The notes under the pieces were generated by a model, which was given only the letters and a program-made list of their open reading frames with translations, did no database searches and had not been told where the DNA came from. DNA of 64,000 nucleotides from an uncultured Acidimicrobiia bacterium (lineage in GTDB: Bacteria; Acidobacteriota; Terriglobia; Versatilivoradales; Versatilivoraceae): NCBI GenBank assembly GCA_963786955.1, contig CAWBAT010000005.1, forward strand, positions 650,860 through 714,859. Reading direction: 5' to 3'. The position numbers were made by a program, and so were the translations under genes. This document shows positions 36,853 to 56,606 of the stretch, in pieces. Position 1 is the first letter of the stretch. The number at the start of each line of letters is the position of its first letter.

Positions 36853-36886
36853 AGGGCCGTCACCTCTTTTCACAAAGGAAAACACC

Positions 36887-37660: not shown

Positions 37661-38659
37661 ATGGATTGCCAAATGCCAAATGCCGATTGTCGATTGTCAA
37701 TCACCCATCTGACTGCTTATTCCAAATGCCTCTTGATTGTGATGCTTTGTTCCTTCATTTCCGGGTGTGGTCATCCCGAGAAGCAAGCCCCTGCCGAGAC
37801 AATTGCAAAGATCCGTTTTTCTGCATTTCAAGACGGCGAGATCTGGATTCGCCATTCCGTTATTCAGCTTCGCTTCGATCCAGACATGTATTGCAAAATC
37901 TTCCTGAATGAAAAAGGTGGATTACAATCCTTCGTGGACATTCCCCCCGACAAGGAGAAGGCTAGGCCGGCACAATTCGTCTCGGTCAATGGAAAAGAAT
38001 TAAGAGATTTTCATATTGACTATGCCAATATTGGAGTCTCGGACATTGGAACTCAGTATGGGATTGGGAGGCGTTTGCACTTGACTGGGCTTGCAAGAAC
38101 GACGGACGGGATCATTATCAGAAAGGAGTTGAAGATTGACCTCTACAATGACTTCCCCGAATTGGCTTTCGTATCCTGCCTGTTTCGCAATATCGACAAA
38201 TCAAGGCCTGTTCAGCTCACCACAATTGTTGACAATTTTTTCCGTCTCAACGCAAATCGCGTCAATTCTAGCCTCCGACCTTATGATTTCATTTTTTTTC
38301 ATGGAGGAATGGAAAGGCAAAGCAGCGGCTCAAAACTGATTGAAAATTTTACGCAAACCGTCCTCTATGAATTCAAACGGGAGCCCCATGCAGACTCCTT
38401 CCCGTTTTTCGATTTCTGGAATGAGCAAATGGGGATGGCGGTTGGGTCTCTCACGGCGGAACTGACTGGGGGTGAGCTTCGAGTCATGATCGATTCAGAT
38501 AAACGTGTCGAAGCAGGCGTTTACTACGAAACAGCCCGAACTCTCGGCCCGGAAGAAGGCATTTCGACTCCGAAGTGCATTTGGATGGTTCATCGTGGAG
38601 ACTTCTTATCTCCTTTCAAGAGATACCAAGAACTGGCACTTCGAGCTGAGCGAAAATAA
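37661..38659 (+). CDS. lipoprotein of unknown function
   Basis: 332 aa. Lipobox-like LCSFISGC after a hydrophobic stretch. No other recognised motif. Confidence 0.45.
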   Translation: MDCQMPNADCRLSITHLTAYSKCLLIVMLCSFISGCGHPEKQAPAETIAKIRFSAFQDGEIWIRHSVIQLRFDPDMYCKIFLNEKGGLQSFVDIPPDKEKARPAQFVSVNGKELRDFHIDYANIGVSDIGTQYGIGRRLHLTGLARTTDGIIIRKELKIDLYNDFPELAFVSCLFRNIDKSRPVQLTTIVDNFFRLNANRVNSSLRPYDFIFFHGGMERQSSGSKLIENFTQTVLYEFKREPHADSFPFFDFWNEQMGMAVGSLTAELTGGELRVMIDSDKRVEAGVYYETARTLGPEEGISTPKCIWMVHRGDFLSPFKRYQELALRAERK

Positions 38660-39009
38660 CAATATTTTCTTCCTCAGCCTTTATGGAATGCCATTACTGG
38701 GTTCGTCCTGAAATGGTAAGGGATCCAGCCAGTTCCATCTTAAGCGATCTCGCAACCCCCCCCAGAATCTACAGCTCCCTCAGCAAACAAGATCCTCCTT
38801 ACAAACCTGAAAGGGCTCAGGATGACTGGTTCGAAGGCCCGGTCGTATCTTTTTAACCTTCGATAAAGAAACCGCATAGATTGTGGCTCTCATTCACAGG
38901 GTGTAGAGCCTATTCCATAAGGGTGACCTAGGTTGCCAGGGAAATGGGCCAAGAGTGTCTGCAAGGCGTATTGGGGAATAGAATTGAGGGATATGGCTAT
39001 GCTAATCGT

Positions 39010-39495
39010 CTAGTTTGAGGCGGATTTGCGTTTATATTGACTCTTATTTCCCGGATCGACAGAAGCCTTGGGTCGGTCTTCATGAATATTTGATTCGGTC
39101 TGATTGCCTAGCTTTTCAGTGGCGTTCGGGTCTTGGATTAAATTCAAATCTGCTAAGTCCGCCGATGTCAAATAGGGACTGATAGACAAAGACCCATGCT
39201 TTTCAGGCGATGTCTTCCTTCTTCTTCTTTCCTTAATCAGATTTTTATCAATGAGTGCATCGATCACCTGGTGCTTGCTGGCATCGAGAACAATGCAGAT
39301 ATCTTTGATAGTGAGGTTCTGATTGGCGAAAAGATTACAGATTGTCAACTTGCGCTTGGTGACCGGGTCCATATGCATGAGGTTATCAGGCAAATCAAAC
39401 TTCTCATTGGTTTTCTTAAAACCTTCGATCGTATAATTGTCTAAGAAGGCAATCAGCACATGCATCCAAAGCCTTCTGAACGTCCTTGCGAACAT
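39010..39495 (-). CDS. hypothetical protein in an AT-rich (about 38-40% GC) block
   Basis: 161-aa ORF, the only long ORF in the AT-rich interval 38700-40080. Basic, lysine-rich C-terminus. No recognised domain. Confidence 0.3.
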   Translation of the reverse strand: MFARTFRRLWMHVLIAFLDNYTIEGFKKTNEKFDLPDNLMHMDPVTKRKLTICNLFANQNLTIKDICIVLDASKHQVIDALIDKNLIKERRRRKTSPEKHGSLSISPYLTSADLADLNLIQDPNATEKLGNQTESNIHEDRPKASVDPGNKSQYKRKSASN

Positions 39496-40068
39496 CTTAC
39501 CTCTCCCGTCTTTCTATCTCAATGATTCTCACCCATTCGTATGGAAAATTAATGGCAAGCGGAGCTATGTTATTAACTCAAATGAACGGACAACCTCTAC
39601 GAATTATTCTAGCAACCCAATAACTAAATATTCTACATGGAAAACAATAACCCAGATTGGCATAGTGTAACACACTATGTGCTTCCTGTGAATTTTGAAA
39701 AATTTCGTATATCTAAGATTCTAAATCTATTATCAAATTCCAGCTCATCCGTTTGCCAAAGATTTCACTAAGAATGGAAAAACTTTCCTAGGTTTGACAG
39801 AGGGTAAATACCAACCCAGTAATGACATCAAAATGAAGAACAAGGAAAATCAGAGGGGAGAAACTTCCGTATCGCGGTCTAGACCCAAGAACCACGAGGT
39901 TGAGAGAATATCCTGCAATATCAATCAATCAATGAGATTTTGGGAATCTGTCGACCTAATCGCAGGTTCGCTCCAATATTCTTCCTGGCAATATTCTGAA
40001 ACGCATTATTAAAGCTTTCAAGGAGAAGATCGGTGCATCCTTCTTCGACGCATCAATTTCCTTTTCAA

Positions 40069-40096
40069 TTGCCTCTTTGTTCTCCCTTTGTATAAT
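40069..40096 (+). promoter_or_regulatory. sigma-70 type promoter candidate for gmd
   Basis: TTGCCT (40069-40074), 16 nt, then TATAAT (40091-40096). GGAGAGAAG RBS before the ATG at 40122. Confidence 0.4.
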
Positions 40097-40121
40097 GGCT
40101 CTTGAAACTGGAGAGAAGTCT

Positions 40122-41174
40122 ATGGCAAAGCGCGCTTTGATCACGGGGGTTACGGGCCAAGATGGGTCTTATCTGACAGAATTCCTATTGTCCAAAGGTT
40201 ACGAGGTTCACGGAATAAAGCGCCGCTCGAGCAGTTTCAACACGGAGCGGATTGATCATCTTTATCATGATTGGCACGAAGCCAACATTTGCCTCGTTCT
40301 TCACTATGGAGACTTAACGGATGGCTCTAGTTTGCGATCTGTAATTTCACAGGTTCAACCTGACGAAATTTACAACTTAGGGGCACAATCCCATGTTCGT
40401 ATCAGTTTTGACCAGCCGGTATACACAGTCGAGACCGATGCCTTAGGGACGCTGATATTGCTGGAAGCAATCCGGGATGCCTGCCCGAAAGCACGCTATT
40501 ACCAGGCTGGGAGCAGTGAAATGTTCGGGAACATCCAAGAAATTCCACAAAGAGAAACGACTCCTTTTTATCCGCGAAGTCCCTATGGTTGTGCCAAGGT
40601 CTTCGCCCATTGGCAGACCGTGAATTATCGGGAAGCTTACGGCCTGTTTGCCTGTAACGGAATCTTGTTTAACCACGAATCCCCACGCCGTGGAGAGACG
40701 TTTGTGACCCGTAAAATCACTCGTGCTGCCACCCGAATCAAAGAGGGCTTGCAGGAGACCCTCTATCTGGGAAATCTCGAGGCCAAAAGAGACTGGGGTT
40801 TTGCGGGGGATTACGTCGAAGCCATGTGGCAGATGCTTCAACAGGAGCAACCGGGTGATTTCGTGATTGCCACGGGAGAAACCCATACTGTCCGCGAGTT
40901 CGTCGAAGTTACTTTTTCGCTCCTTAGCTTAGATTGGGAAAATCACGTTCGAATTGATCCTCTGTACTTTAGGCCAACTGAGGTAGACATCTTGCAAGGA
41001 GACAGCCGGAAAGCCCGTGAAAAATTCAACTGGCGCCCTCGGATCAACTTTCGCCAGTTGATAGAAATGATGGTCGAATCCGACTGGAAGCTGGCGAGAA
41101 AAGAAAAACTCATCCGAGAAAACAGGGGGGCCATTTCCGAGGGTACCATTAGCCCAGCAGCTGATTTGCAGTAA
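40122..41174 (+). CDS. gmd: GDP-mannose 4,6-dehydratase
   Basis: [48 protein letters not shown]…, plus …[47 protein letters not shown]…. This is the near-universal GMD sequence. Confidence 0.9.
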
Positions 41175-41429
41175 TTACCGAATCCCTTCCGCACTATGAC
41201 AAACTTCAAGTCGGAATGATTTGTTTAGAGGCAATCTGAAATATTGCCCCATCTTAGTAACCCATCACGTGGGCCGGAGCATTGAGAAACCCCAAACCGA
41301 CAATGAACTCATACCTGTTTGGAACCGGTCGAGTATTTTCACAGGAACGGCCGACGCTTCGCCACCAAACTGCAGAACGCGTGTCTAGCTCAGTTCTATG
41401 GATGTTGGAAGGAGATAGAGGAATAAAGC

Positions 41430-41996
41430 ATGCCATTTAAGATTGAGTCCCGTCACTTGGGCGAGATAGTGGTCATCGTTCCGGATGTATTCGAAGATCA
41501 GCGTGGTTTCTTCATGGAAACGTTTCGTGAGGATCATTTCGCCCAGTCAGGGTTGCCTACCCGTTTCTCCCAGGACAATCATTCACGGTCGACACATGGA
41601 GTCCTGCGCGGACTTCACTTCCAATGGGATCCCCCCATGGGGAAGTTGATGCGGGTTACCTATGGTGAGGCTTATCTGGTTGCAGTCGATATCCGGAAGG
41701 GTTCTCCTTCGCTCGGCCAATGGTTCGGCATTGAGGCCTCTGCTCAGAACCGACGGCAGGTCTGGGCCCCGCCAGGATTTGCGAGAGGTTTTTGCGTACT
41801 CTCTGATTCCGCCGAGATCCAATACAAATGTACTGGAATTTACAACAGCAATGCGGAATCGGGAATTCGTTGGGATGATCCCGCGATTGCAATAAAATGG
41901 CCGGTCAAGGACCCTATCCTGTCAGGAAAAGATGCTGTCGCGAGGACCCTTTCAGAATGGCTGGCTTCAAAGGAATCGGATCATTTCCGCTTCTGA
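41430..41996 (+). CDS. dTDP-4-dehydrorhamnose 3,5-epimerase family cupin (RmlC-like sugar-nucleotide epimerase)
   Basis: 188 aa with …VPDVFEDQRGFFMETF…THGVLRGLHFQ…GKLMRVTYGEAYLVAVDIRKGSPSLGQWFG… (RmlC motifs). Confidence 0.8.
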   Translation: MPFKIESRHLGEIVVIVPDVFEDQRGFFMETFREDHFAQSGLPTRFSQDNHSRSTHGVLRGLHFQWDPPMGKLMRVTYGEAYLVAVDIRKGSPSLGQWFGIEASAQNRRQVWAPPGFARGFCVLSDSAEIQYKCTGIYNSNAESGIRWDDPAIAIKWPVKDPILSGKDAVARTLSEWLASKESDHFRF

Positions 41997-42185
41997 GTTC
42001 CAACCCTAAAATCCCTTGACGCTGGGTCGCGATTGGGATAGCTTTTACAAGGCTTGATTGCCGTAAGTTATTGTTTTTCAAGTCTAGTGAATTTTTGGAC
42101 TAGCAGAAAATGGATTGTAACGTACACAGAATTAAAGGCCTAGCCCCAAGAGAAAATTGCAGGTTGGATTTAGCTTTGGGGAGCT

Positions 42186-42466
42186 TTGAAAACGGAGGAT
42201 GTGTTGATGAAAGACTCCGAATTTGTCAAAGCTCTCAAGGAAATGAAACTTCGGTATCCTGAAGGAGAGATAACGAACTACAACCCGGAAAAGGGTTATG
42301 GGTTCATTACCAGTGAGAAAGGAGAAAAGATATTTTTCTTTCTTCCTGAAGTCGACACGATAGGATGTCGTGCCAGATGATATTCGCAAGGGGGTTCGAG
42401 TCGGATTTGACGTTTCCCTGACGTCCAAAGGCAGAAGAATCTCCAGAATTAAGGTACTTGACTAAC
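42186..42466 (+). CDS. cold-shock domain protein with N-terminal extension; frame break near 42365
   Basis: YNPEKGYGFITSEKGEKIFFFLPEV (RNP1/RNP2-like CSD core). The C-terminal strands continue in another frame (…DDIRKGVRVGFDVSLTSKGRRISRIKVLD*). Confidence 0.5.
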
Positions 42467-42690
42467 AGGAGATTCTCAAGAATCTTATCCTTAAAGAGTA
42501 TTATTGACCTTCAGGTAATTTCCTTGAAGAGTTGAAGTGTATATCTAAAATACAGAAATTGTTTTGGAAACCACCATCTTTTCTCCATCAAGAATACGAT
42601 GGTGGTTTTTTATTCCCAAGTTAAAAAAAGGAGATTGTTTCGCCCCCTTCGATAGAATTCTCTTGGGCCCCCGATGAAACACAAAGATCC

Positions 42691-43044
42691 ATGCAAGATT
42701 ATTTCCCGTTAATTCTGATGTTCGTGGTGACAGGCTTACTCGTTGGAGTCATCCTTTTCTTAGCCAGCCTCCTCGGACCGAAGAAACCGAGCCTGATGAA
42801 GAATTCTCCTTTTGAGTGTGGCTATCAGCCATTTCAGTTGCCCACCGACCGTTTCTTCATTCGCTTCTACCTCATTGCGATGCTTTTCATCTTGTTTGAC
42901 ATTGAAGTGATCTTTCTCTATCCCTGGGCGGTCGTTTTCAAGTCCCTTGGATTGAGAGGCTTTATGGGGATTGTAGTCTTTATTCTGGTTCTCGGGGCTG
43001 GTTACATTTACGCATGGAAGAAGGGTGCGTTCCAATGGGAGTAG
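42691..43044 (+). CDS. nuoA: NADH-quinone oxidoreductase subunit A
   Basis: 117 aa with 3 TM helices and …KNSPFECGYQPF… (NuoA/ND3 signature). Confidence 0.85.
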   Translation: MQDYFPLILMFVVTGLLVGVILFLASLLGPKKPSLMKNSPFECGYQPFQLPTDRFFIRFYLIAMLFILFDIEVIFLYPWAVVFKSLGLRGFMGIVVFILVLGAGYIYAWKKGAFQWE

Positions 43045-43078
43045 CTTCACGTCTGATGGAGGCTGCTTTCACCGTTTT

Positions 43079-44107
43079 ATGTCGATTCAAGAGATAAAAC
43101 GAAGGCTACATTCACTTAGCGGTGTTGTAAAGGATGAGGCTCAGATCCTCATTCTGATGCATGACAACCCAGATCCTGACTCCCTAGCCAGTGCTTTTGG
43201 GCTTCAATATCTACTCAACAGTCTCGCTGGGAAGCCTTCGTTAATTGGTTATTCGGGAATTGTAGGGCGGGCTGAGAATCGGGCAATGATCAAGCATCTG
43301 GACATCAGGCTTTGTCCGTTATCAAGAATTCCCATCAAAGAATATCCCTGTATCGCCATGGTGGACACCCAACCTTCGACTGGAAACAATTCGCTGCCGA
43401 CCAGACTCTTGCCTAAGATTGTCTTCGACCATCATCCGTTCCGGTCGGCCAGCCGGAGAGTCGCCTATCGAGAAATTAAGACGAAGTACAACGTCACTGC
43501 TTCGATCATCACCGAGTATTTGATCGCCTCGAAGCTTGAGTTCGATTTCAAACTCGCAACGGCACTTTTTTATGCCATCAAAAGTGAGACCGAGGGGCTC
43601 TCCAGAGAAGTCGGCAAGATCGAAGCCCGCTTGAGACATTATCTCTATCCCCATGTAGATCAGAAGCTCTTAGCGAACATCGAGAATGCCCGCGTGAGCA
43701 AAGAGTACTTCCAGACGATACACTCCGCACTGGAAAACAGTATGATTTACGGGGACGCCGTAGTCGCTAAGATTGAAAATGTTCAAAATCCGCACATCGT
43801 TGCCGAAGTTGCCGATTTTTTGATGAGGCTAGAAAAAATCAAATGGGGCTTTTGTTTCGGGACCTACAACGGAGATGTTCTGATTTCGGCACGGACTATC
43901 GAGCGCAGTAACGACGCGGGGAGCCTGATGCGAGAAGCCTTTGGGGATTTGGGGGCTGCCGGGGGACATGAAATGATGGCAGGGGCCAAGATTAGCCTCA
44001 AAACTACGTCTCTCCAGGGTAAGAGATCCTTCGTACGTCAATTAATTTTCAAAGCGCTGGAGCTGACGGGAAATGACCCGAAAGATGGGGAAAGGCTGGT
44101 CGAATAA
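43079..44107 (+). CDS. DHH/DHHA1 family phosphoesterase (NrnA-like nanoRNase/pAp phosphatase)
   Basis: Motifs ILMHDNPDPDSLASA (DxD), …VFDHHPF (DHH), and GAAGGHEMMAGAKI (the GGGH of DHHA1). Sits where nuoB/nuoC would be expected. Confidence 0.7.
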   Translation: MSIQEIKRRLHSLSGVVKDEAQILILMHDNPDPDSLASAFGLQYLLNSLAGKPSLIGYSGIVGRAENRAMIKHLDIRLCPLSRIPIKEYPCIAMVDTQPSTGNNSLPTRLLPKIVFDHHPFRSASRRVAYREIKTKYNVTASIITEYLIASKLEFDFKLATALFYAIKSETEGLSREVGKIEARLRHYLYPHVDQKLLANIENARVSKEYFQTIHSALENSMIYGDAVVAKIENVQNPHIVAEVADFLMRLEKIKWGFCFGTYNGDVLISARTIERSNDAGSLMREAFGDLGAAGGHEMMAGAKISLKTTSLQGKRSFVRQLIFKALELTGNDPKDGERLVE

Positions 44108-44116
44108 TATAGCCCT

Positions 44117-45471
44117 ATGACAACTCCATCCGTCGATGTTCAGCAATCGAGCTGACAACCCATAGTACCCTGCTGAATATCGGTCCTTCTCATCCGGCCA
44201 TGCATGGTGTGATTCGAATCATCACCCAGCTGGAAGGTGAGACGATTGTTAAGGCTGATATTGAAATTGGTTATCTACACCGTGGGTTTGAAAAAAGTTG
44301 TGAACAGGGAGGTTACAACCACCCTATCCCTTATACCGACCGGCTGAACTATGTTTCCCCGCTCATCAACAATTTTGGCTACTGCATGGCGGTGGAAAAG
44401 CTCATGGGAATCCAGGTCACGGAAAGATGCCAGTATATTCGGGTACTCATGAGCGAGATTTCTAGGGTTTGTGACCACCTCACTTGTATCGGGGCCTCGG
44501 CCATGGAACTCGGGGCCATGACTGTTTTCTTGTATATGATCAAGGCGCGTGAATTTCTGTGGGAGCTAGTAGAGTCTGTGACTGGTGCGCGCTTGACGAT
44601 ATCTTATGGGCGAGTCGGAGGCGTGAGCGGGGATCTCCCAGCGGACTTCGGCGCAAACGCCGCTGGCACGTTCAAGAAAGTGCGCGAAGTGCTTATCGAA
44701 GTGGACCGTTTACTCTCGCGCAACCGAATTTTCGTCGACCGCATGCAAGGCACCGGTTTAATCAAGCGGGAAGATGCCATCGCTTACAGTTTCACCGGAC
44801 CGGTAGCACGGTCTGTCGGGATTGACTATGACGTTCGACGGGATCAGCCCTACATGGTCTATGATCAACTGCAGTTTGATGTCCCCCTCGGGTCCATGGG
44901 TGACAATCTGGACCGTTACCATGTACGGATGGAGGAGATGCAACAGAGTCTACGCATCGCAGAACAAGCATTGAATAAAATGCCCAAAGGACCTGTTCAG
45001 GTGGATTCCGAAGGGAAAGTCGTTGAAGCGCATGAAATGGTGGATCGCGCAAAAATGGGCCGAACCCGAGGGATCCGAGATACTTTGGTCCAGCTATCTC
45101 CGAATCTGGAAGGGTTGGAAGGCCCCGCGTATGACGAGGTCACTGCCAAGGAAAAACGGGCCGTACTTCCTGCCAAGAGCGACACATACGGAAACATTGA
45201 AGGGCTCATGAACCATTTCATGCTGATCATGCACGGTCATGGAATCCATCCGCCAAAAGGTGAAGCTTATGCTGCGGTTGAAGCCGCCAACGGTGAGCTG
45301 GGCTTTTATGTTGTCAGTGATGGCTCCGATCGACCGTATCGGGTTCGAGTACGTCCCCCCTGCTTCACTCTGATGGCAGGCCTTCACAAAATGATTGAAG
45401 GGTCTATGATGGCGGACCTCATTCCTACTTTCGGCTCGATCAATATGATTGCCGGAGAACTGGACCGATGA
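44117..45471 (+). CDS. nuoD: NADH-quinone oxidoreductase subunit D (49-kDa subunit); frame break near the N-terminus
   Basis: …LLNIGPSHPAMHGVIRIITQLEGETIVKADIEIGYLHRGFEK…. ATG at 44117 (MTTPSVDVQQSS) is in frame 2 and the body is in frame 1 from about 44150. The table ORF is 44200-45471. Confidence 0.85.
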
Positions 45472-45643
45472 ATCTCGAAGCACATCGTTCTCGATTAGGG
45501 AATTCTTAGGCTTATTTCAGCAGGGGGAAGTTGACACAGGGTCTCCCGTTTGTCAGCCGAAGCTTGGCCGCCCTTAAGGCTTATGGTTTGATTTTAGAAG
45601 TTGAAGGCTGCGCTTAATCTTCAATTCAGAGAATCTCGGAAAC

Positions 45644-46921
45644 ATGGCAGAACTCGCACTTTTAAGAGACGTGCAGGAAAGAAATCTGATGACGGTCGAA
45701 GACTACCGTCAGGTGAATGGTTTCGAGACGCTTCGCAAATCTCTTTTTGAGATGAAACCCGAACAGGTCACCGAGGAAGTCAAGAAGTCGGGATTGAGAG
45801 GCCGCGGAGGTGCAGGTTTTCCAACTGGAATGAAATGGAGCTTTATTCCGAAAAACTTGGATAAGCCTCACTATCTGGTGATTAATGCCGACGAAAGCGA
45901 GCCTGGAACCTGCAAGGACCGCGTGATTATTGAAAAAAACCCTTTCCTGCTGATGGAAGGGATCGCTATCGCGAGCTACGCAATCGGGGCGCACACCTGT
46001 TATCTCTACATCCGGGGAGAATATTACGAACAGGCCATGATCCTCAAAAAGGCCATCGAGGATGCTTATCACTACGGTTACTTCGGAAAGAATATCATGG
46101 GTTCCGGCTTCGATCTGGATGTTTATCTCCATCGCGGTGCGGGGGCCTATATCTGTGGTGAAGAAACCGGCTTGCTGCAATCACTGGAGGGTAAGAAAGG
46201 TTGGCCCCGTTTAAAACCTCCCTTCCCTGCTACCTATGGTCTTTATGGCTGCCCTACAGTCATTAACAATGTAGAAACCATTTCCGCAGTCGTCCCCATT
46301 TTACAACGAGGAGGAGACTGGTACGCCAGCCTTGGTACTCCCAAGAATGGGGGAACGCGACTCTTTTCGGTAAGCGGTCATGTCAAGAAGCCAGGAAATT
46401 ACGAACTGCCCATGGGGACTTCGCTGCGAACCATCATTTACGATATTGCGGGGGGCATTAAAGGCGACAAGAAGTTAAAAGCGGTCATTCCTGGGGGCAG
46501 TTCAGTGCCGGTGCTGACAGCCGAAGAAATTGACGTTAAGATGGATTTCGATTCCGTGGCGGCGATTGGTTCCCTGTTGGGTTCCGGGGGAGTAATCGTC
46601 ATGGACGAAAGCACGTGTATGGTGAAAGCGCTATTGCGGATTTCGAAGTTTTATGACCATGAGTCCTGCGGACAGTGCACACCTTGCCGGGAAGGGACCG
46701 CCTGGTTGAGAAAAACCCTCCAGCGCGTCTTTGACGGGCAGGCTCAGCCTAGGGATCTGGATCAATTGATGGATGTTGCTTTTAATATGATGGGGACAAC
46801 GATCTGCGCGCTTTCAGATGCAGCCGCGATGCCGGTGCGCAGTTTTCTTCAAAAATTTCGCCAAGAATTCGAATATCACGTCCACGAAAAGCATTGTGAT
46901 GTCGCGCGGCGCAAGAGTTAA
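45644..46921 (+). CDS. nuoF: NADH-quinone oxidoreductase subunit F (51-kDa, FMN/NADH binding)
   Basis: …GLRGRGGAGFPTGMKWSF… and …ESCGQCTPCREGTAW… (4Fe-4S N3). 425 aa. Confidence 0.9.
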   Translation: MAELALLRDVQERNLMTVEDYRQVNGFETLRKSLFEMKPEQVTEEVKKSGLRGRGGAGFPTGMKWSFIPKNLDKPHYLVINADESEPGTCKDRVIIEKNPFLLMEGIAIASYAIGAHTCYLYIRGEYYEQAMILKKAIEDAYHYGYFGKNIMGSGFDLDVYLHRGAGAYICGEETGLLQSLEGKKGWPRLKPPFPATYGLYGCPTVINNVETISAVVPILQRGGDWYASLGTPKNGGTRLFSVSGHVKKPGNYELPMGTSLRTIIYDIAGGIKGDKKLKAVIPGGSSVPVLTAEEIDVKMDFDSVAAIGSLLGSGGVIVMDESTCMVKALLRISKFYDHESCGQCTPCREGTAWLRKTLQRVFDGQAQPRDLDQLMDVAFNMMGTTICALSDAAAMPVRSFLQKFRQEFEYHVHEKHCDVARRKS

Positions 46922-46961
46922 CAGCGGTCCACGGATCGCGGCAGAGTAATATCGAGTTCCT

Positions 46962-48587
46962 ATGCCAACGGTTACAATAAATCAACAGTCCATCGTTATT
47001 CCCGAAGGGACCACGATTATTCAAGCAGCCCAACAGTTGGGGATCGAGATCCCTCATTACTGTTATCACCCCGGGCTCAGCACCGCCGGTTCCTGCCGCA
47101 TGTGTCTGGTGGAAATAGAGAAAAATCCCAAGTTACAACCTGCTTGCTATACCCGAATATCGGATGGGATGGTGATTTACACCAATACCGAGAAAGTGAA
47201 GCAGATGGTGAGCGGCGTTCTGGAATTCCTGCTCATTAACCATCCGCTGGACTGTCCTGTGTGCGACCAGGCCGGTGAGTGCTTTTTGCAGGAATATTAT
47301 ATGAAGTTCGGGCTTTACGACAGCCGGATGAACGAAGACAAGATCAAACGGCATAAGGCCCAGGCGATTGGCCCGCATGTCATGCTGGACACCGAGCGGT
47401 GCATTCTATGTTCACGTTGCGTCCGCTTCGTCGAAGAGGTCTCGGATAGCCATGAGATTGGCATATTGAACCGCGGAGGTCGATCAGAAATTCGATTGCT
47501 TCCTGACAAGGCCCTGGACAATAACTATTCCGGAAATGTAGTCGATATTTGCCCGGTAGGGGCGTTGACGGATCGCAATTTCCGCTTCCAATGCAGGGTG
47601 TGGTATCTGGACAAGACCAATTCTGTCTGCAACGGTTGTAGCCGCGGCTGCAATATAACCGTGGAAGCCAATACCGAGCGGCCTCATCATGCTGAGGGCC
47701 GGCGCATTATGCGCTTAAAACCCCGCTACAACCCAGAAGTCAACCAGTGGTGGATCTGCGATATCGGTCGCTATGGTTTCGAATTCATCGACGACCCTTC
47801 ACGCCTGGCAAGTTGTTTGGAGAGGCGAGAGGGTCAGCAAGAATCGATTGAATGGCATGAAGCACTCGGGAAAGCTTCTCAGCGGTTGTCTGATGCATTG
47901 CATCATCAGGGCGACGAATCGGCGGTCGTGATTGCCTCTCCACAATTGACCAATGAAGATTTGTTCCTCATTCGAAGGTTCTTCGGGGAAGACCTGGGAC
48001 TATCGAAGATTGATTATCGCGTACCAGAGCGAAGCTTGTCGGCAGGAGATAACGTTCTCCTTCTCGCGGATCGAAACCCGAATACGCGGGGAGCAGATGC
48101 CATCTTAAAGAGCGGTGGCGGGTTTAGTTTGCACCAGTTGCTACAATCCCCAACGACCCAAAGCTTCAAACTGCTCTATCTCTTCGAACAGGATCTTGTA
48201 AAGAAGCTTGGCGAAGAAGACGCAAAGTCCTTTCTTTCTAGCTTTGAATATGTGATCTATCAGGGGACCAACGAGAATGAGACCTCTCGCCTGGCCGATT
48301 TAGTTTTACCGAGCGCTACGTATGCTGAAGTTGAGGGAACCTTTACCAATTTTGAAGGAAGAGTCCAGAAAATTAACCGAGCCGTGGCACCATGGGGAGA
48401 TTCCCTCCCCACTTGGCAGATAATGGCCAAGCTGGCAGAAACGCATGGAAAAACATACCCTTATGATTGTTCTGAAGACGTATTTGCGGAACTAGCTGAC
48501 CGAGTGCCCGAATTTGAAAATTTGAGCTATTCCAAGATGGGTGATCGAGGGACAAAAACGATCACAACCGGCCAGATGAAAGCGTAG
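46962..48587 (+). CDS. nuoG: NADH-quinone oxidoreductase subunit G, short form (541 aa)
   Basis: 2Fe-2S region CYHPGLSTAGSCRMCLVEI, HPLDCPVCDQAGEC, CILCSRCVRF and CPVGAL. Lacks the long molybdopterin-like C-terminal extension. Confidence 0.85.
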   Translation: MPTVTINQQSIVIPEGTTIIQAAQQLGIEIPHYCYHPGLSTAGSCRMCLVEIEKNPKLQPACYTRISDGMVIYTNTEKVKQMVSGVLEFLLINHPLDCPVCDQAGECFLQEYYMKFGLYDSRMNEDKIKRHKAQAIGPHVMLDTERCILCSRCVRFVEEVSDSHEIGILNRGGRSEIRLLPDKALDNNYSGNVVDICPVGALTDRNFRFQCRVWYLDKTNSVCNGCSRGCNITVEANTERPHHAEGRRIMRLKPRYNPEVNQWWICDIGRYGFEFIDDPSRLASCLERREGQQESIEWHEALGKASQRLSDALHHQGDESAVVIASPQLTNEDLFLIRRFFGEDLGLSKIDYRVPERSLSAGDNVLLLADRNPNTRGADAILKSGGGFSLHQLLQSPTTQSFKLLYLFEQDLVKKLGEEDAKSFLSSFEYVIYQGTNENETSRLADLVLPSATYAEVEGTFTNFEGRVQKINRAVAPWGDSLPTWQIMAKLAETHGKTYPYDCSEDVFAELADRVPEFENLSYSKMGDRGTKTITTGQMKA

Positions 48588-48700
48588 AGATGACTACGAG
48601 GAACCTCTTCTTTTCTGACTTTTCGTTGACAGATTTTGCTCCGAACCTTTTTCCCCACCCGAGATAGACGGCCTTTTTTGACGGAGACTGCTAAATAATT

Positions 48701-49783
48701 ATGCTGGCAACTCTTGGAATCGAACTCGCAAAGGTTTTGGTCGTATTAATTGGCGTCCTAAATCTGGCGGCTATTTTGACCTGGATGGAGCGAAAGCAAA
48801 GTGCCGTCATGCAAGACCGCATTGGGGCAAACCGGGCCTCGATTTTTGGCTTTCGCTTGTTTGGACTTTTTCAAGTTCTCGCAGACGGATTAAAGATGTT
48901 TACCAAAGAAGAATTTGTTCCCGAAAAAGCCCATCGTTTCATTCACACCCTGGCACCCTTTCTGGCTGCCTTCTTTGCGCTGATAGGCTTTGCCGTCATC
49001 CCGTTCGGAAATGTGGTCACGTTGTTTGGCCGCGAGATCAATCTTCAGATCATTGATTTGAATGTAGGCGTTTTATTTATCTTTGCTGCCATGTCTCTCG
49101 GGATTTATGGGGTTGTGTTGGCTGGATGGTCCTCCAACAATAATTATGCGTTTCTTGGCGGAATGCGCGGTAGTTCCCAAATGTTTTCTTACGAGATAAC
49201 CATTGGGGCAACGATTCTGGGAGTACTCATGATCTTCGAGTCCATGAGCTTGCAAGATATTGTGAGAGGCCAGGGGCAGTTGCTCTGGGGATTTCTCCCT
49301 AAGTGGGGATTTGTTGTTCAGCCCATTGGATGCATTTTGTTTCTAGTTGCCGGAATAGCCGAAACCAAGCGTGTCCCTTTTGATCTGCCCGAAGGTGAAT
49401 CTGAAATTATCGGTTATTTCGTCGAATACAGTAGCATGAAGTTTGGTCTGTTCATGCTTACTGACTTCGTTGAAACGGTTCTTATTGCTGCCTTGGTCAC
49501 CACCCTATTCTTTGGTGGCTGGCAAGTGCCGTATTTGTACCAGAACGGCTTTTCTTTCCCCGGCGGGATGACGGTTGAAATTTCGCAAATCTGGGTCGCT
49601 CTCTTCCAGGTTCTGTCTTACGGAATTAAGGTCTTTTTCTTTTGTTGGCTTCTCTTATTAATCCGGTGGACCTTGCCGCGCTTTCGTTATGACCAGCTCA
49701 TGCGGCTTGGCTGGCAGATGATTTTTCCGCTCTCGATTCTGAACCTGCTGGTCACGGGCGCGGTAATCCTCCTCCTTCAATAA
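48701..49783 (+). CDS. nuoH: NADH-quinone oxidoreductase subunit H (ND1)
   Basis: 360 aa, multi-TM, with …AAILTWMERKQSAVMQDRIGANRA…, …IPFDLPEGESEIIGYFVEYSSMKFGLFML… and …RWTLPRFRYDQLM… (NuoH hallmarks). Confidence 0.9.
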   Translation: MLATLGIELAKVLVVLIGVLNLAAILTWMERKQSAVMQDRIGANRASIFGFRLFGLFQVLADGLKMFTKEEFVPEKAHRFIHTLAPFLAAFFALIGFAVIPFGNVVTLFGREINLQIIDLNVGVLFIFAAMSLGIYGVVLAGWSSNNNYAFLGGMRGSSQMFSYEITIGATILGVLMIFESMSLQDIVRGQGQLLWGFLPKWGFVVQPIGCILFLVAGIAETKRVPFDLPEGESEIIGYFVEYSSMKFGLFMLTDFVETVLIAALVTTLFFGGWQVPYLYQNGFSFPGGMTVEISQIWVALFQVLSYGIKVFFFCWLLLLIRWTLPRFRYDQLMRLGWQMIFPLSILNLLVTGAVILLLQ

Positions 49784-49800
49784 TTTCAAAGAATGGACTT

Positions 49801-50292
49801 ATGGAACGACGCGAATTGACTTTTGTCGAACGATTCTACCTGGTAGAAGTTTTCAAGGGGCTTTGGCTCACCGGACGGCACTTCTTCTTGAATTTGAGCA
49901 AACATATCAAGACACAACTCGGGCTCAATACTCTGGAAAAAGGCGCGGTGACTTTTCAGTACCCTGAAGAGCGGCGCCCCTTTTCCCCGCGCTATCGGAG
50001 CCGTCATCGGTTAACCCAGCGTGAAAACGGGAGTCCCCGTTGTGTTGCCTGCATGATGTGTGAAACAGCATGCCCAGCCCGTTGTATCTACATCGTGGCC
50101 GGCGAGCATCCAGATCCCAACGTCGAGAAATATCCCATCCGTTTTGATATCGACCTTGGCGTCTGCATTTTTTGCGGTTTTTGCGTAGAGGCTTGCCCGG
50201 AGGACGCGATTCGTATGGATACTGGAATCGTCGAGATTGCCGCCTACAGCCGAAAAGAAATGATTTATCATATTGAAGACCTACTGCAGTAG
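49801..50292 (+). CDS. nuoI: NADH-quinone oxidoreductase subunit I (2x[4Fe-4S] ferredoxin, TYKY)
   Basis: CVACMMCETACP and CIFCGFCVEACP motifs. 163 aa. Confidence 0.9.
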   Translation: MERRELTFVERFYLVEVFKGLWLTGRHFFLNLSKHIKTQLGLNTLEKGAVTFQYPEERRPFSPRYRSRHRLTQRENGSPRCVACMMCETACPARCIYIVAGEHPDPNVEKYPIRFDIDLGVCIFCGFCVEACPEDAIRMDTGIVEIAAYSRKEMIYHIEDLLQ

Positions 50293-50434
50293 ATCATCCG
50301 ATCGTCCTTTCCATTTTCCAGGCGTATCCGCCTCTAGCCTTCGCGGGTGGCGAAGACATGGGGCTTCAGTGGCAACGTGGCACATTCATAATTCCGATTG
50401 GAAATATTCATCAGACGTACAACATCTTCGTTCC

Positions 50435-50815
50435 ATGCAAAACACCATGAGACTCCAGTTCGGATTAGCAATGCTGGCTTGTTGTGTTCTAGACGGGTGT
50501 CATACAACCCAGCCACCGGTCACGAGAGAAGCCCTTGTAGGAAGCTATGTCTACAAATCTGAAGACCCTGAAGGCAAGGCGACAGATCACGAGTGGGACC
50601 GTCTGACTTTACAAGCAGATGGGAAGTATGACCTCGTGGAAGAAGGACCAACTAAGCCCAGATCTGAAACTATAGGAAGGTGGACAAGTTGGGCCGGAGT
50701 CAAAGGCACAGAAGTCGTACTGGATAATGCGGGCTATCCGATTCAGATAAAGGGAAATGAAATTAGGCTCTTGATCGATAACGATGTTGGGATATGGTAC
50801 GCGAAATCAAAATGA
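50435..50815 (+). CDS. small lipoprotein of unknown function
   Basis: MRLQFGLAMLACCVLDGC lipobox. The table ORF 50273-50815 has a non-native upstream extension. Confidence 0.4.
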   Translation: MQNTMRLQFGLAMLACCVLDGCHTTQPPVTREALVGSYVYKSEDPEGKATDHEWDRLTLQADGKYDLVEEGPTKPRSETIGRWTSWAGVKGTEVVLDNAGYPIQIKGNEIRLLIDNDVGIWYAKSK

Positions 50816-50883
50816 AGCCCGCCGCTGTCAACGCTCATTTAGAATTGACCCCTTTTTAATCATCAGAATTGACCACCCTGGCT

Positions 50884-51000
50884 GGTGGCGAAGACATGCG
50901 CCCTTTGCATGTCTTCGAAGAAGCTGACTCATTAAAGAGAAATGAGAAAAACAAAACAGTGCCGCACTCAAGAGATTGAATTCTCGCCTTTCCTTAAAGC
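50884..51000 (+). repeat. hairpin-repeat family, copy a (GGTGGCGAAGACATGCGCCCTTTGCATGTCTTC + AT-rich tail), directly 5' of RHS cassette A
   Basis: 10-bp perfect inverted repeat GAAGACATGC/GCATGTCTTC at 50890-50916, then …aaagagaaatgaga…gattgaattctcgcc…cttggcatctatcc. Related copies are in the next features. Confidence 0.7.
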
Positions 51001-52548
51001 TTGGCATCTATCCTACTAAATAGAATAGTCTGTCATTCATTCCAATTCGCTCTTCCTTTTTCTTGTCGCAGAGAAAGGCGTAACCGGGCATCAGTCGCTG
51101 CCACTCGGAACAATGGGCAGATTACCGAATTTATCGATTCGGTTGCCGGGCAGACAGTCGATTACACCTACGACAGTTTGAATCGTTTGATAGCAGCCAG
51201 CACGACCGGGTCCCAGTGGGGTTTGAGCTTCAGCTATGATGGTTTTGGAAACCGTTTGAGCCAAACGGTAACGAAGGGATCTGCTCCGGCTAGCTCGCTC
51301 GCGATTAATCCAGCCACCAACCGGATCAGCTCGACCGGCTACGTTTACGATGCGAATGGCAACTTGACGACCATGCCGAGTGGCACTTCAAGTCTCACGC
51401 TCAGTTATGATGTGGAGAATCGGCTGGCACAAGCCAGTACCACATCAATGACCAATCGTTTCGGATATGATCTGGACAATCGTCAGGTCTATACAAACAC
51501 ACTTGGTTCGACAGTTGAATCCATTATCTTTTACGGAGCCTTTGGGGAACGATTGAAGGAGTACACTTTGCAATGGGGCAACTATCAAGCGATCCATTGG
51601 AATTTATACTTTGATGGGAAGCTGATTTGGCAGGATTACAAAATCACACCCCCTGCGAACGGCGGCATCCCAGGTTTTCAGGACCGACTGGGCTCGCGAA
51701 TGGCTTATTTTCTGGCGTATTATCCCTTCGGCGAGGGGCAGGTCCCAGGCCGGGATTTTGCCACTTATTTGAGCACACCCTTTGGTATCGATTATGCGCA
51801 CAACCGCTACTATGCTAGCAACTTGGGACGGTTCACCACGCCCGATCCGTATGGAGGAAGCGCCAATCTAGGAGATTCACAAAGCTGGAACCGGTATGCG
51901 TATGTAAACAACGATCCTGTGAACAGGAATGATCCATCGGGGCTCGATTATTATTACTATGGTCCCAGAGCAGGAAATGATTTCTTTGACTGGGAGTGGC
52001 TCTGCAGGTTCTTTGGCAACTGTTCGGGTGGGAATCCAGGTGGCCGAGGCGAAGGTCCGACTGTTGGTCCAGGAGGCCCTCGAGGTGTAGATCCTTACAC
52101 AGAACCGTCACAGACAGTACCCGCAAACAACACGGTCTCGTCATCCCCTTGTAACTCGGCTGGAAACGCGCTAAGTCCACAGCAATATCAGGCGGTGGGA
52201 TACGCTGCGCGAGCCTCGTGGCTGTACGGTCCGGAAGTCGGAGTTTGGTCGAATGCGGGTGCGTTGGCGATGTTCAAGCGTGGGCTGCCGCTAGATGCGC
52301 AGGTACTCTATGGCGGGTCACCAGCTTACGCGAATTACGCGTACGGGGTTTACGCGGCTGCAGCAGGGTTACCATTGAGCGTTGCATTTGCGGGTGCAAA
52401 TGCTTATGCAAGTGTTTTTAGCTCTTACGAAAGAAAACCTCCGTATGACGAGAATTATAAATCGACGCCTGCCGAGAATATCCAAAATATTACCAAAGGG
52501 TACAACGACCAGAAAAACGGAACTCTATGCTCAATACCAAATCAATGA
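51001..52548 (+). CDS. RHS/YD-repeat C-terminal cassette A: YD repeats, RHS repeat-associated core and a C-terminal polymorphic-toxin domain of unknown type (orphan-like; no N-terminal domain)
   Basis: YD motifs (YTYDSLNRL, FSYDGFGNRL, YVYDANGNL, LSYDVENRL, FGYDLDNRQ). RHS core …NRYYASNLGRFTTPDPYGG…YAYVNNDPVNRNDPSGL, followed by a G/P-rich linker and a 200-aa unique C-terminal domain. Begins at a TTG inside the repeat element, with no RBS. Confidence 0.75.
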   Translation: MASILLNRIVCHSFQFALPFSCRRERRNRASVAATRNNGQITEFIDSVAGQTVDYTYDSLNRLIAASTTGSQWGLSFSYDGFGNRLSQTVTKGSAPASSLAINPATNRISSTGYVYDANGNLTTMPSGTSSLTLSYDVENRLAQASTTSMTNRFGYDLDNRQVYTNTLGSTVESIIFYGAFGERLKEYTLQWGNYQAIHWNLYFDGKLIWQDYKITPPANGGIPGFQDRLGSRMAYFLAYYPFGEGQVPGRDFATYLSTPFGIDYAHNRYYASNLGRFTTPDPYGGSANLGDSQSWNRYAYVNNDPVNRNDPSGLDYYYYGPRAGNDFFDWEWLCRFFGNCSGGNPGGRGEGPTVGPGGPRGVDPYTEPSQTVPANNTVSSSPCNSAGNALSPQQYQAVGYAARASWLYGPEVGVWSNAGALAMFKRGLPLDAQVLYGGSPAYANYAYGVYAAAAGLPLSVAFAGANAYASVFSSYERKPPYDENYKSTPAENIQNITKGYNDQKNGTLCSIPNQ

Positions 52549-53027
52549 TCGAGATTGCTTCAGAAGATGCAATTGTAAACATTTCAAGGCAGGGTCGCCT
52601 TGTTCAAGTTATGGTGAATCTGATTGTTATCGTGGGGCTGTGTATTTTTGGACTAGGCTGTAATGAGGGCAGTATAACTTGGTCGACTGAAGCATATTCT
52701 CCTGATGGGGTCTGGCATGCGACTGCCCATACTCGCCAATGGGGAGGCCCCGGGACAGCTTTTGTAGAGACGACCGTGTACCTTGATCAAAGCAGGGTGA
52801 AAGGGCCTCCGACCCTTATACTAGCCTTTACTCATCAGTATTCTAGTAGAATGTATCTGAAATTGGAATGGATCACAGCAAAGCACTTGGACGTCACTTA
52901 TGGTTATGGTGAGAGCGGAAGACCTGGCGATCATGTTGATCTAATCTTCCAAGCAGTCAAGAACAATGGTGTTGAAATTACGGCGAGAGAGATTCCGAGT
53001 GGAACAAAAAAGGCCACAACTCAATAA
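52527..53027 (+). CDS. putative cognate immunity protein for cassette A (membrane-anchored, unknown fold)
   Basis: 166 aa overlapping the toxin stop. One TM helix (LVQVMVNLIVIVGLCIFGLGC). Its position immediately 3' of an RHS-CT is the only evidence for function. Confidence 0.4.
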   Translation: MLNTKSMIEIASEDAIVNISRQGRLVQVMVNLIVIVGLCIFGLGCNEGSITWSTEAYSPDGVWHATAHTRQWGGPGTAFVETTVYLDQSRVKGPPTLILAFTHQYSSRMYLKLEWITAKHLDVTYGYGESGRPGDHVDLIFQAVKNNGVEITAREIPSGTKKATTQ

Positions 53028-53344
53028 CGCCATTGCCAAAAACTCTAGTCACACCCAACGACAAGGCCGTGGGGGTGTTGGGGCCAGCCCTCAAAAATCA
53101 AATTAGTTCAGTACACCCGGAAAAAGATCGGTGACCAGACCAAAGCCCTGTACGAATCCTTGTGTGAGACAGTACATCTTAGCTTGGGGCCACGAAACTG
53201 TCCCTGCAGCAAAATACAGGATGACACTCTCTTACCTCTTCACGGACCAACACACTAGATTTGGATGTTTAGCTCGCGCCCGAGCACAAAAATTCACTAG
53301 CCACAAGGCTTCCTCGGGATCATTTCTGCTTGCATAAATCCCTT

Positions 53345-53440
53345 TCTAGATCAGGTCTTCGCGGCATTTGGCTCATGAAAGAGAAATGAGATAAAGGTGA
53401 ACGGTGCCACACTCAAATAGGTTGAATCTTTACTGTAGGT
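53345..53440 (+). repeat. hairpin-repeat family, degenerate partial copy (tail half only)
   Basis: gtcttcgcggcatttggctcatgaaagagaaatgagataaaggtgaacggtgccacactcaaataggttgaatc aligns with the tail of copies a and b. Confidence 0.5.
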
Positions 53441-53631
53441 CCTTTGATCAACATTTAGGGGACATCTGTCTCCCGTTAATTTCTCCTAGTTATTACTCAA
53501 GCTATTGTAAGTTGCAATCCCCTGCTGCCCAGACAGGGCGTTATAGTCTCTAATCATGGCTTGGTCAACTTGTCCATGCTGGTTCACTTGCTGTTGCTCG
53601 ATTCCAAGTTGTCGGCGCCGTTGGAGCGCGC

Positions 53632-53754
53632 GTGGCGAAGACATGCGCTCTTTGCATGTCTTCGAATCAGTTGACTCATGAAAGAGAAATGTGGGAAAAG
53701 AAGAATCGGGCATTGCCGCTCTTAAAAGTTTGAATTCTCGCCTTTCCTTAAAGC
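53632..53754 (+). repeat. hairpin-repeat family, copy b
   Basis: gtggcgaagacatgcgctctttgcatgtcttcgaatcagttgactcatgaaagagaaatg…ttgaattctcgcctttccttaaagcttggcatctatcc. The tail is near-identical to copy a. Confidence 0.7.
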
Positions 53755-54300
53755 TTGGCATCTATCCTACTAAATAGAATAGTCTGTCATTCATTCCAAT
53801 TCGCTCTTCCTTTTTCTTGTCGCAGAGAAAGGCGTAACCGGCAATCAGCCGCTGCCACTCAAGACAATGGGCAGATTACCGAATTTATCGATTCGGTTGC
53901 CGGGCAGACAGTCGATTACACCTACGACAGTTTGAATCGTTTGATAGCGGCCAGCACGACCGGGTCCCAGTGGGGTTTGAGCTTCAGCTATGACGGATTT
54001 GGAAACCGTTTGAGCCAAACGGTAACGAAGGGATCTGCTCCGGCTAGCTCGCTCGCGATTAATCCAGCTACCAACCGGATCAGCTCGACCGGCTACGGGT
54101 ACGATGCGAATGGCAACTTGACGACCATGCCGAGTGGCACTTCAAGCCTCACGCTCAGTTATGATGTGGAGAATCGGCTGGCACAGGCCAGTACCACATC
54201 AATGACCAATCGTTTCGGATATGATCTGGACAATCGTCAGGTCTATACCAACACAACTGGTTCGACAGTTGAATCCATTATCTTTTACGGAGCCTTTGGG
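53755..54300 (+). pseudogene. RHS/YD-repeat cassette B, truncated after the YD region (…FYGAFGER) by a hairpin-repeat copy
   Basis: About 95% identical to cassette A over 170 codons, then runs into repeat copy c (…GRGWRRHAPFAFLRRS is the translated repeat). No RHS core and no CT. Confidence 0.6.
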
Positions 54301-54360
54301 GAACGGGACTGGGGTCACATCTTTCCTTTTTCCAAAAACGAGCGTGGAAGGGGCCGCGGG

Positions 54361-54480
54361 TGGCGAAGACATGCGCCCTTTGCATTTCTTCGAAGAAGCT
54401 GCATCATAAAAGAGGAATGAGAGAACAGAAAAAGCTGCCCCACTAAAGAGATTGAAATCTCGCCTTAAAGCATGGCATCT
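54361..54480 (+). repeat. hairpin-repeat family, copy c (second stem half diverged: gcatttcttc)
   Basis: ggtggcgaagacatgcgccctttgcatttcttcgaagaagctgcatcataaaagaggaatgagagaacagaaaaagctgcc…. Duplicated exactly at 58088. Confidence 0.7.
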
Positions 54481-54489
54481 ATCCTAATT

Positions 54490-56413: not shown

Positions 56414-56606
56414 CCGAGAGGCGTTTCCAGCATCAAGGAGATTTCACAAGAGTCAAAAGAGATTTGAAGTCAATTTCGGGGTTAATTATTCAGCATCTTA
56501 TATAGTAAAGCTCAGTGCAATCGAGCCATTTTGGAGAATTAAGGATGACAACTACTTTTATCTTATTTTTTCTGCGATTACTACTCCTTGGCGGTACCAA
56601 AGCGAG

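Follow-up and report, generated by a model that had tools for sequence, protein, structure and literature searches.

A 64-kb stretch of contig CAWBAT010000005.1 (assembly GCA_963786955.1), hereafter the window, carries seven tightly spaced plus-strand genes at 42691–50292 in the order nuoA-DHH-nuoD-nuoF-nuoG-nuoH-nuoI, in which six genes for subunits of respiratory complex I (NDH-1) enclose a gene for a DHH/DHHA1 phosphoesterase. Our analysis indicated that this locus is probably the largest fragment of a split, functional complex I gene set in one Acidobacteriota clade. It is a lineage-specific variant of the split nuo sets already known and not a new system. The gene content, its conserved arrangement, the purifying selection acting on it, a nuoB-nuoC pair elsewhere in a clade member and an operon of intermediate structure were observed directly, and nuoE and nuoJ–N would lie at other loci. 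Loci used for comparison are denoted by L and a number.

To establish the gene content of the cluster, we compared its products with Pfam and NCBIfam and read the cofactor motifs from the translations. All six Nuo proteins (NuoA, D, F, G, H and I) exceeded the Pfam gathering scores, and the NCBIfam cut-offs were reached by NuoD (NF004739, 443.8 vs. 360), NuoF (TIGR01959, 640 vs. 559), NuoI (TIGR01971, 121 vs. 113) and, barely, NuoG (TIGR01973, 470.1 vs. 470.05). NuoA and NuoH gave strong NCBIfam matches, yet remained under the narrow equivalog cut-offs. NuoF contained the binding motif for flavin mononucleotide (FMN) and NADH, GAGAYICGEETG, and the N3-cluster motif CGQCTPC...C. The N1b/N4/N5/N7 Cys/His motifs of NuoG were present as C..CRMC..C, HPLDCPVCDQAGEC, CILCSRC..CP and CNGCSRGC, and its C-terminal molybdopterin-like region was reduced. 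NuoI carried both CxxCxxCxxxCP motifs (CVACMMCETACP and CIFCGFCVEACP), and NuoD had the equivalents of the quinone-site residues His38 and Tyr87 (MHGV and DRLNYV). The gene content proposed in the initial annotation, including the short nuoG, was confirmed by these searches, and the spacing it described was borne out. Extended to GTG 43025, the DHH open reading frame (ORF) overlaps nuoA by 20 nucleotides (nt), and its ATG lies 34 nt past the nuoA stop codon. The ATG at 43079 was taken as the true start, since the clade homologues align from that Met and nearly all have 342 amino acids (aa). The nuoD ATG at 44117 follows 9–10 nt after the DHH stop codon. The 172-nt nuoD–nuoF gap, from which nuoE had been described as missing, contained no nuoE remnant and no RNA element, and none of the spacers matched an Rfam family.

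We then searched for the remaining subunits. A tblastn search of the window with E. coli NuoA–N recovered neither NuoB, NuoE or any of NuoJ–N nor the NuoC part of NuoCD. A lenient tblastn search of the window with clade NuoB and NuoC, NuoE of a relative and E. coli NuoJ–N gave only noise (E > 0.2), and Pfam identified no nuo genes among about 30 other window ORFs. The noted absence of nuoB, C, E and J–N therefore holds for the whole window. Likewise, the flanks of the clade loci, covered up to 10 kb per side where the contig allowed, yielded no match to NuoB, C, E or J–N.

The suggestion that the missing subunits are encoded elsewhere was supported for nuoB and nuoC. We used NuoC of L039 as the query, clustered the matches and listed the most soil-like group, which led to PYV42484.1 on contig QHZP01000184.1 (L100) of the metagenome-assembled genome (MAG) gp11 AA58 (GCA_003224715.1). 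Contig QHZP01000469.1 (L017) of the same MAG carries nuoA-DHH-nuoD-nuoF. L100 contains an intact stand-alone nuoB (152 aa) and nuoC (165 aa), 3 nt apart, so in this MAG the two genes are encoded away from the focal cluster. The pair was present on four contigs (L099, L100, L101 and L102), flanked by a divergently oriented HD-GYP/dCache sensor gene and folB. The stand-alone NuoB retains all four N2 cysteines (CC...C...C) and is 82–90% identical to NuoB of L093–L095, L098, L137 and similar nuoA–I operons, with 90% identity to L137 and 86% to L098. These two loci adjoin the focal clade in a concatenated D-F-G-H-I tree, a placement without measured support; the tree does not choose a sister group of the clade among L137, L098, L125 and others. 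A 172-aa NuoC group was rejected as the clade NuoC and assigned to a canonical operon of another lineage (L096). Among the matches listed, a metagenome scan with NuoE gave nuoE-nuoJKLMN (L164 and L178) and a nuoA-nuoE pair (L165), which were rejected as the focal-clade nuoE on base composition (organisms of 65–70% guanine-plus-cytosine (GC) content vs. about 50% in the focal clade). In L164 (6001–12200) and L178, nuoE is directly followed by nuoJ-K-L-M-N, and in L165 a nuoA-like gene precedes nuoE; these loci represent further ways to split a nuo set.

To assess whether the arrangement is maintained, we inspected about 20 independent contigs of the clade, which consists of Acidobacteriota MAGs labelled gp11 or Terriglobia (L001–L006 and L092 from look-ups; L011–L026 from a scan of 185,579 species genomes). 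Every clade locus of sufficient length had the order nuoA-DHH-D-F-G-H-I, at DHH identities of 59–94% across the clade and with flanking genes that vary between sub-lineages. The closest relative, L011, has 92.5% nt identity to the window over the nuo region and is collinear with it at about 90% nt identity over 36877–50344 and again from 58604. For this pair (dS 0.19–0.40), the ratio of nonsynonymous to synonymous substitution rates (dN/dS) was low in all six genes compared, at 0.071 for the DHH gene, 0.068 for nuoG and the values in Table 1 for nuoA, nuoD, nuoH and nuoI; nuoF could not be computed because it is frameshifted in L011. The ratio was informative for the window/L011 and L022/L092 pairs only, deeper pairs being saturated (dS about 2 or undefined), and for the DHH gene it amounted to 0.04–0.07. 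Moreover, wherever a short-read MAG locus contained these genes, all seven were intact. Given the conserved order, the intact genes, the low dN/dS and the preserved FMN, Fe-S and quinone-site motifs, the seven-gene locus appears to be working and maintained, not decaying.

The initial annotation overlooked a frameshift at the 5' end of nuoD. Homology to nuoD extends 5' of ATG 44200 to ATG 44117 in another frame. Two extra nucleotides distinguish the window from L011 here, one inserted at 44144 and one at 44148, so that nuoD is 5'-frameshifted as written. A TAG at 44110 closes the frame of ATG 44200 on its upstream side; homology runs in the open frame over about 44149–45471, whose first in-frame ATG is that at 44200. 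The cold-shock-domain (CSD) gene upstream of nuoA is broken by a 1-nt insertion at 42374 (vs. L011). Elsewhere in the clade, frame breaks were found in nuoF (L011, L014 and L003), in nuoD and nuoF (L022), in nuoG (L002, L003, L012 and L016) and in nuoH (L012). The frame-broken loci are long-read MAGs of the clade, plus L012, and different genes are hit in different MAGs. Because the CSD gene shows the same lesion, long-read MAGs are broken at other places and short-read MAGs are intact, the window frameshifts in nuoD and the CSD gene are probably assembly indels. Two further genes of the window are incomplete, a fatty-acyl reductase gene (NAD_binding_4; 13782–15873) split into two ORFs and a YegS-like gene (24502–24996) that shows its C-terminal domain only; together with the CSD and nuoD insertions they suggest either assembly indel errors or several pseudogenes.

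To separate the features of the clade from older ones, we examined the gene contexts of the nearest NuoD relatives outside it (68–72% identity). L093 has nuoA-B-C-D-EF(fused)-G(530 aa)-H-I followed by unrelated genes, L094 has A-B-C-D-E-F-G(535 aa)-H-I-J-K followed by pyruvate dehydrogenase genes, and L095 has A-B-C-D-EF-G(549 aa)-H-I, with a PF05635 gene between C and D and a 363-aa ORF between H and I, again followed by unrelated genes. NuoG measures 530–557 aa throughout these relatives and NuoD 434–465 aa; nearly all clade NuoD proteins have 449–450 aa. The cluster also ends after nuoI in L001–L005, L092, L093, L095 and L098, and after nuoK in L094. Since the short NuoG, the 434–465-aa NuoD and the end at nuoI or nuoK are common to L093–L095, they are not special to the window; they belong to this type of complex I and are older than the clade. 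The related nuoA–I operons (L093–L096 and L137) resemble the focal cluster in complex I type, short NuoG and long NuoD, and also in the CSD gene upstream, whereas they keep nuoB, nuoC and nuoE in place, unlike the focal clade.

Other features of these relatives were also recorded. The fused NuoE-NuoF proteins of L093 (11341–13221) and L095 (11329–13158) measure 609–626 aa. The PF05635 (23S rRNA intervening-sequence protein) gene of L095 (9582–9977) occupies the slot between nuoC and nuoD that the DHH gene holds elsewhere, and the gene of about 360 aa between nuoH and nuoI (15928–17019) has no Pfam match; L149 and L176 have gaps of similar size (about 1.1 kb) at the nuoH–nuoI junction. L098 has an additional gene for a NuoB-like protein of 165 aa (PF01058) upstream of pep-deformylase-CSD-nuoA; a 4Fe-4S dicluster protein is encoded next to it (7058–8025 for the two), on the downstream side.

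A second Acidobacteriota lineage (L039, L098 and L103) provided the intermediate operon, with the order CSD-nuoA-B-C-DHH-D(450 aa)-E-F-G(539 aa)-H-I. The DHH gene thus likewise stands upstream of nuoD; its start lies 4 nt past nuoC in L098 and overlaps nuoC in L039, and its end overlaps nuoD by 11–20 nt. Since this lineage keeps nuoB and nuoC beside the DHH gene, the latter is an insertion upstream of nuoD and not a replacement of nuoB and nuoC. The earlier description of a DHH gene in the nuoB/C position therefore fits the window, where it precedes nuoD without nuoB and nuoC, but not the second lineage, where both are retained. From these gene orders, the insertion appears either to predate the focal clade or to be recurrent. 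The DHH groups of the two nuo-linked lineages are 42–43% identical, no closer than to homologues not linked to nuo. No derived residues common to the two were found, and one conserved position is altered in both, to different residues. The DHH tree did not show a single origin of the two.

Taken together, the split gene set probably arose as follows. The ancestral operon would have had nuoI (nuoK in some) as its last gene and a NuoG already short, at about 540 aa, with the antiporter-like subunits elsewhere. An NrnA/GdpP-like DHH/DHHA1 gene would then have entered it directly 5' of nuoD. Subsequently, the focal clade would have transferred nuoB-nuoC to a separate two-gene locus, and nuoE would have left the nuoD–nuoF junction. 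The seven genes are presumably co-transcribed from a promoter upstream of nuoA, and their products would join NuoB, C, E and J–N from other loci to form a normal NADH:quinone oxidoreductase. The DHH enzyme would hydrolyse short nucleotides and merely share the expression of the operon.

To characterise the embedded DHH protein, we combined family searches, motif alignment and structure prediction. Both Pfam domains were barely over their cut-offs (PF01368, 30.7 bits vs. 28.1; PF02272, 31.8 bits vs. 25.9). Against NCBIfam, no family was matched at E ≤ 1e-5, hence no curated NrnA match, and phmmer found no PDB chain at E ≤ 1e-3; homologues bear the names 'NrnA' and 'nanoRNase' through automatic annotation. 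The DxD, D, DHH and GGH motifs (HDNPDPD, VDTQP, DHHP and AGGH) were conserved in all nine aligned clade sequences. Motif IV reads SET, with Glu for the canonical Asp, as in most of the subfamily, so that the claim that all motifs are present stood for the former four but not for motif IV. The clade profile matched the GdpP catalytic domain (9n0l) over residues 5–324 (E = 3.9e-6), and TmPDE and S. aureus NrnA over motif I only (NrnA E = 2e-4). The AlphaFold model (predicted local distance difference test score, pLDDT, 77.4; predicted template-modelling (TM) score 0.74) retrieved GdpP (5xsp, 6e-16), TmPDE (5o4z), a RecJ-like protein, NrnA/Pde2 (8iu7/4ls9/5j21) and Rv2837c (5jju, TM 0.59) from the PDB by Foldseek, at E-values of 1e-16 to 1e-12, in line with a two-lobed DHH fold. 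The TM-scores were 0.45–0.59, values that the orientation of the domains and a model pLDDT of 77 may explain. The protein has the two-domain DHH+DHHA1 architecture, the length of about 340 aa and the DxD, D, DHH and GGH motifs in common with the stand-alone DHH/DHHA1 phosphodiesterases, namely NrnA of B. subtilis (5J21) and M. smegmatis (4LS9), S. aureus Pde2/NrnA (8IU7), TmPDE (5O25) and Rv2837c/CnpB (5JJU), and with the GdpP catalytic domain (5XSP). It differs from them in its identity of only 15–19% and in the Glu of motif IV.

At E ≤ 1e-3 the subfamily runs to thousands of members, found in Geobacterales, Planctomycetota, Myxococcota, NC10 and others. Homologues in NC10 and Anaeromyxobacter did not adjoin nuo, and only one of 64 further genome loci of DHH homologues, L039, had nuo neighbours. 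Of 97 positions conserved to at least 85% among 33 family members outside the two nuo-linked lineages, the focal protein retains about 89%, together with all metal-binding and GGH motifs; the genome context was examined for two of these members (NC10 and Anaeromyxobacter). Sequence and model thus describe what looks like an ordinary, catalytically intact member of the NrnA/GdpP-like subfamily. By analogy with its relatives not linked to nuo, its substrate is most likely nanoRNA, a pApA/pGpG dinucleotide or pAp, and the gene is most likely an operon hitch-hiker that shares nuo transcription.

Several points weigh against a split, functional complex I with a hitch-hiking DHH gene. The nuoB-nuoC pair is tied to the focal cluster through the binning of a single MAG, and nuoE and nuoJ–N were not located in any clade genome (NuoE metagenome scan, among the matches listed). 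The nuoD frameshift in the window could be a real lesion. The DHH gene keeps the same slot in two lineages whose DHH proteins are only 42% identical, strong purifying selection acts on it, and its translation is coupled to that of nuoC/nuoD; together this is more persistence than a neutral hitch-hiker would strictly need. The two nuo-linked DHH groups joined in only 4 of 60 bootstraps of a neighbour-joining tree, which does not show that they share one insertion.

The points on the DHH gene bear on the strongest alternative, that its product is tied to complex I as an assembly or maintenance factor, a hydrolase of inhibitory nucleotides, a supplier of FMN or a second-messenger phosphodiesterase. 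Its variants are that the enzyme removes ADP-ribose-like or NAD(H)-derived species, releases FMN from flavin adenine dinucleotide, or couples signalling to respiration through cyclic di-AMP (c-di-AMP) or pApA. We consider such a tie possible, though rather unlikely. It is favoured by the position directly upstream of nuoD in two lineages with diverged DHH proteins, by gene boundaries that in L039 and L098 overlap nuoC and nuoD or come to within a few nt of them (34 and 9 nt from the neighbours in the window), by the low dN/dS of the gene and by best structural matches that are dinucleotide and c-di-AMP phosphodiesterases. However, relatives of 36–47% identity are widespread and did not adjoin nuo in the contexts checked, the two nuo-linked lineages share no derived residue, an unrelated gene fills the slot in a related operon (the PF05635 gene of L095), and in the literature we found no paper linking DHH/DHHA1 proteins with nuo operons. 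We know of no accessory nucleotide hydrolase of bacterial complex I. The stronger form, a dedicated and co-translated complex I partner in at least two Acidobacteriota lineages, is more doubtful still; such a partner could act in assembly or repair, could clear an inhibitory nucleotide from the NADH site, or could adjust respiration by hydrolysing a second messenger. If true, it would explain why the DHH gene has been held upstream of nuoD through extensive operon rearrangement. For a complex I role of the embedded gene, called unexplained at the outset, its persistent position is the only positive evidence.

Other readings fared worse. A hybrid enzyme, in which the cluster products join NuoB, C and J–N from a different nuo operon, for example of the 11-subunit type, is improbable. 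L095 does have a second, 11-subunit-type nuo cluster beside its A–I cluster, and nuoJ–N were not located for the clade; however, the stand-alone NuoB and NuoC belong to the complex I type of the focal genes and lie outside any other operon, and hybrid enzymes are rare according to published phylogenies (PMC4453560). Less probable again is a second complex I copy, redundant or degenerating, from which B, C, E and J–N have disappeared, the remodelled or decaying copy considered in the initial annotation. Seven of the fourteen complex I genes are indeed absent by the count used here, and nuoD is 5'-frameshifted in the window. This reading is contradicted by a gene order kept down to 59–63% DHH identity, by intact genes in short-read MAGs, by dN/dS of 0.02–0.07 in six genes and by the retention of a cognate nuoB-nuoC pair elsewhere, and the CSD insertion and the frameshifts of relatives in other genes point to assembly error. 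Assembly chimeras at the nuoA–DHH and nuoI–RHS junctions, suggested by nothing more than the unusual gene order, can be dismissed for the former and are very improbable for the latter. Over 20 independent contigs, obtained in different studies and with different sequencing technologies, contain the nuoA-DHH-nuoD junctions; the nuoA–DHH junction occurs in all relatives whose contig reaches it, and the window is collinear with L011 on both sides of the RHS array.

The downstream edge of the cluster was examined in the same comparison. The 8.3-kb RHS array (50345–58603) is an insertion relative to L011, with the synteny break at 50344/58604; in L011, a HupE/UreJ-like gene (window 58604 onward) directly follows nuoI. 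The array was therefore inserted downstream of an already terminal nuoI and did not truncate the operon. The observation that the cluster stops after nuoI where the array begins was correct, and the same end in relatives without an array answers the concern about a chimeric nuoI–RHS junction. The partial cassette repeat reported after nuoI is real: it matches the 5' part of D4, the 79-nt element that precedes each RHS cassette, with the left hairpin arm only, and coincides with the left edge of the array. This repeat is the reference copy of the 23-nt family D9, which has seven copies; the other six share 74–87% identity with it, and every one of them makes up the 5' end of a D4 element. At the upstream edge, the CSD gene is a conserved neighbour of nuoA (L001–L004, L039 and L098), and a terminator-like hairpin (about 42569–42612) lies 3' of it.

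Table 1. Features of the nuo cluster and its edges (window positions).
Feature	Position	Strand	Evidence
CSD gene 5' of nuoA	42186–42464	+	weak PF00313 match
nuoA, 117 aa	42691–43044	+	PF00507 E = 6.5e-35; dN/dS 0.038 vs. L011
DHH/DHHA1 phosphoesterase gene, 342 aa, NrnA/GdpP-like	43079–44107	+	Pfam, homologues, motifs, model, Foldseek
nuoD, 450 aa in relatives	44117–45471	+	PF00346 E = 1.4e-99; dN/dS 0.040 vs. L011
nuoD–nuoF spacer, 172 nt	45472–45643	.	conserved among close relatives only
nuoF, 425 aa	45644–46921	+	TIGR01959 640 bits; PF01512/PF10589
short nuoG, 541 aa	46962–48587	+	TIGR01973 470.1 bits vs. 470.05 cut-off; Pfam
nuoH, 360 aa	48701–49783	+	PF00146 E = 3e-104; dN/dS 0.057 vs. 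L011
nuoI, 163 aa, two CxxCxxCxxxCP motifs, final cluster gene	49801–50292	+	TIGR01971; dN/dS 0.024
partial RHS-cassette repeat	50338–50360	+	repeat family D9

Other parts of the window and the database records were also noted. An 8.4-kb block at 25806–34162 has a GC content of 58–61% (vs. about 50% elsewhere) and contains sulfatase-family genes at 27665–30076 and 32020–33654 and an unassigned 544-aa ORF at 30249–31883, all on the minus strand. The block is absent from L011, where its flanks lie about 340 nt apart, and it looks like an acquired island. At 1336–7878, a cluster of cytochrome genes hints at extracellular electron transfer in an Acidobacteriota genome; its products are multihaem c-type proteins, one NapC/NirT-like, one MtrC/MtrF-like (604 aa) and one of 334 aa with paired CXXCH motifs. 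The records of L011, L014, L016, L023 and L026 are titled 'uncultured Acidimicrobiia bacterium' (Actinomycetota), and proteins of the MAGs so titled are 72–94% identical to those of MAGs titled Acidobacteriota or Terriglobia; judged by these identities, the Acidimicrobiia labels of the clade records are probably wrong.

The six Nuo proteins of the cluster have clear orthologues in the canonical systems, E. coli nuoA–N and Thermus thermophilus Nqo1–14. The focal set differs from the canonical complex I operon in that nuoB and nuoC form a separate pair and nuoE and nuoJ–N are not in the cluster, in a NuoG of about 540 aa (vs. 783–908 aa in canonical systems), and in a 450-aa NuoD with an insertion of about 50 aa that also occurs in relatives such as Rokubacteria, NC10 and Binatia. 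The nuo genes are colocalised in 86% of genomes with complex I and not in about 14% (Spero et al. 2015, PMC4453560), and 'split' nuo sets occur in most clades (bioRxiv 10.1101/2025.03.13.643058). In these published sets the subunit genes are likewise spread over several loci, with the enzyme presumed functional. As far as searched, the A-D-F-G-H-I / B-C partition with an embedded DHH gene was not found in either source.

These results indicate that complex I in the focal clade is quite likely split and not lost. Automated pipelines that demand colocalised nuoA–N genes, or that score a genome by one cluster, would report an incomplete complex I for this soil-abundant clade. The loci give a stepwise picture in which an A–I operon gains a DHH gene and nuoB-nuoC and nuoE are then excised, a large operon fragmenting while staying functional. 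The DHH gene within a complex I operon is a guilt-by-association lead, for which the prior of a hitch-hiker is high.

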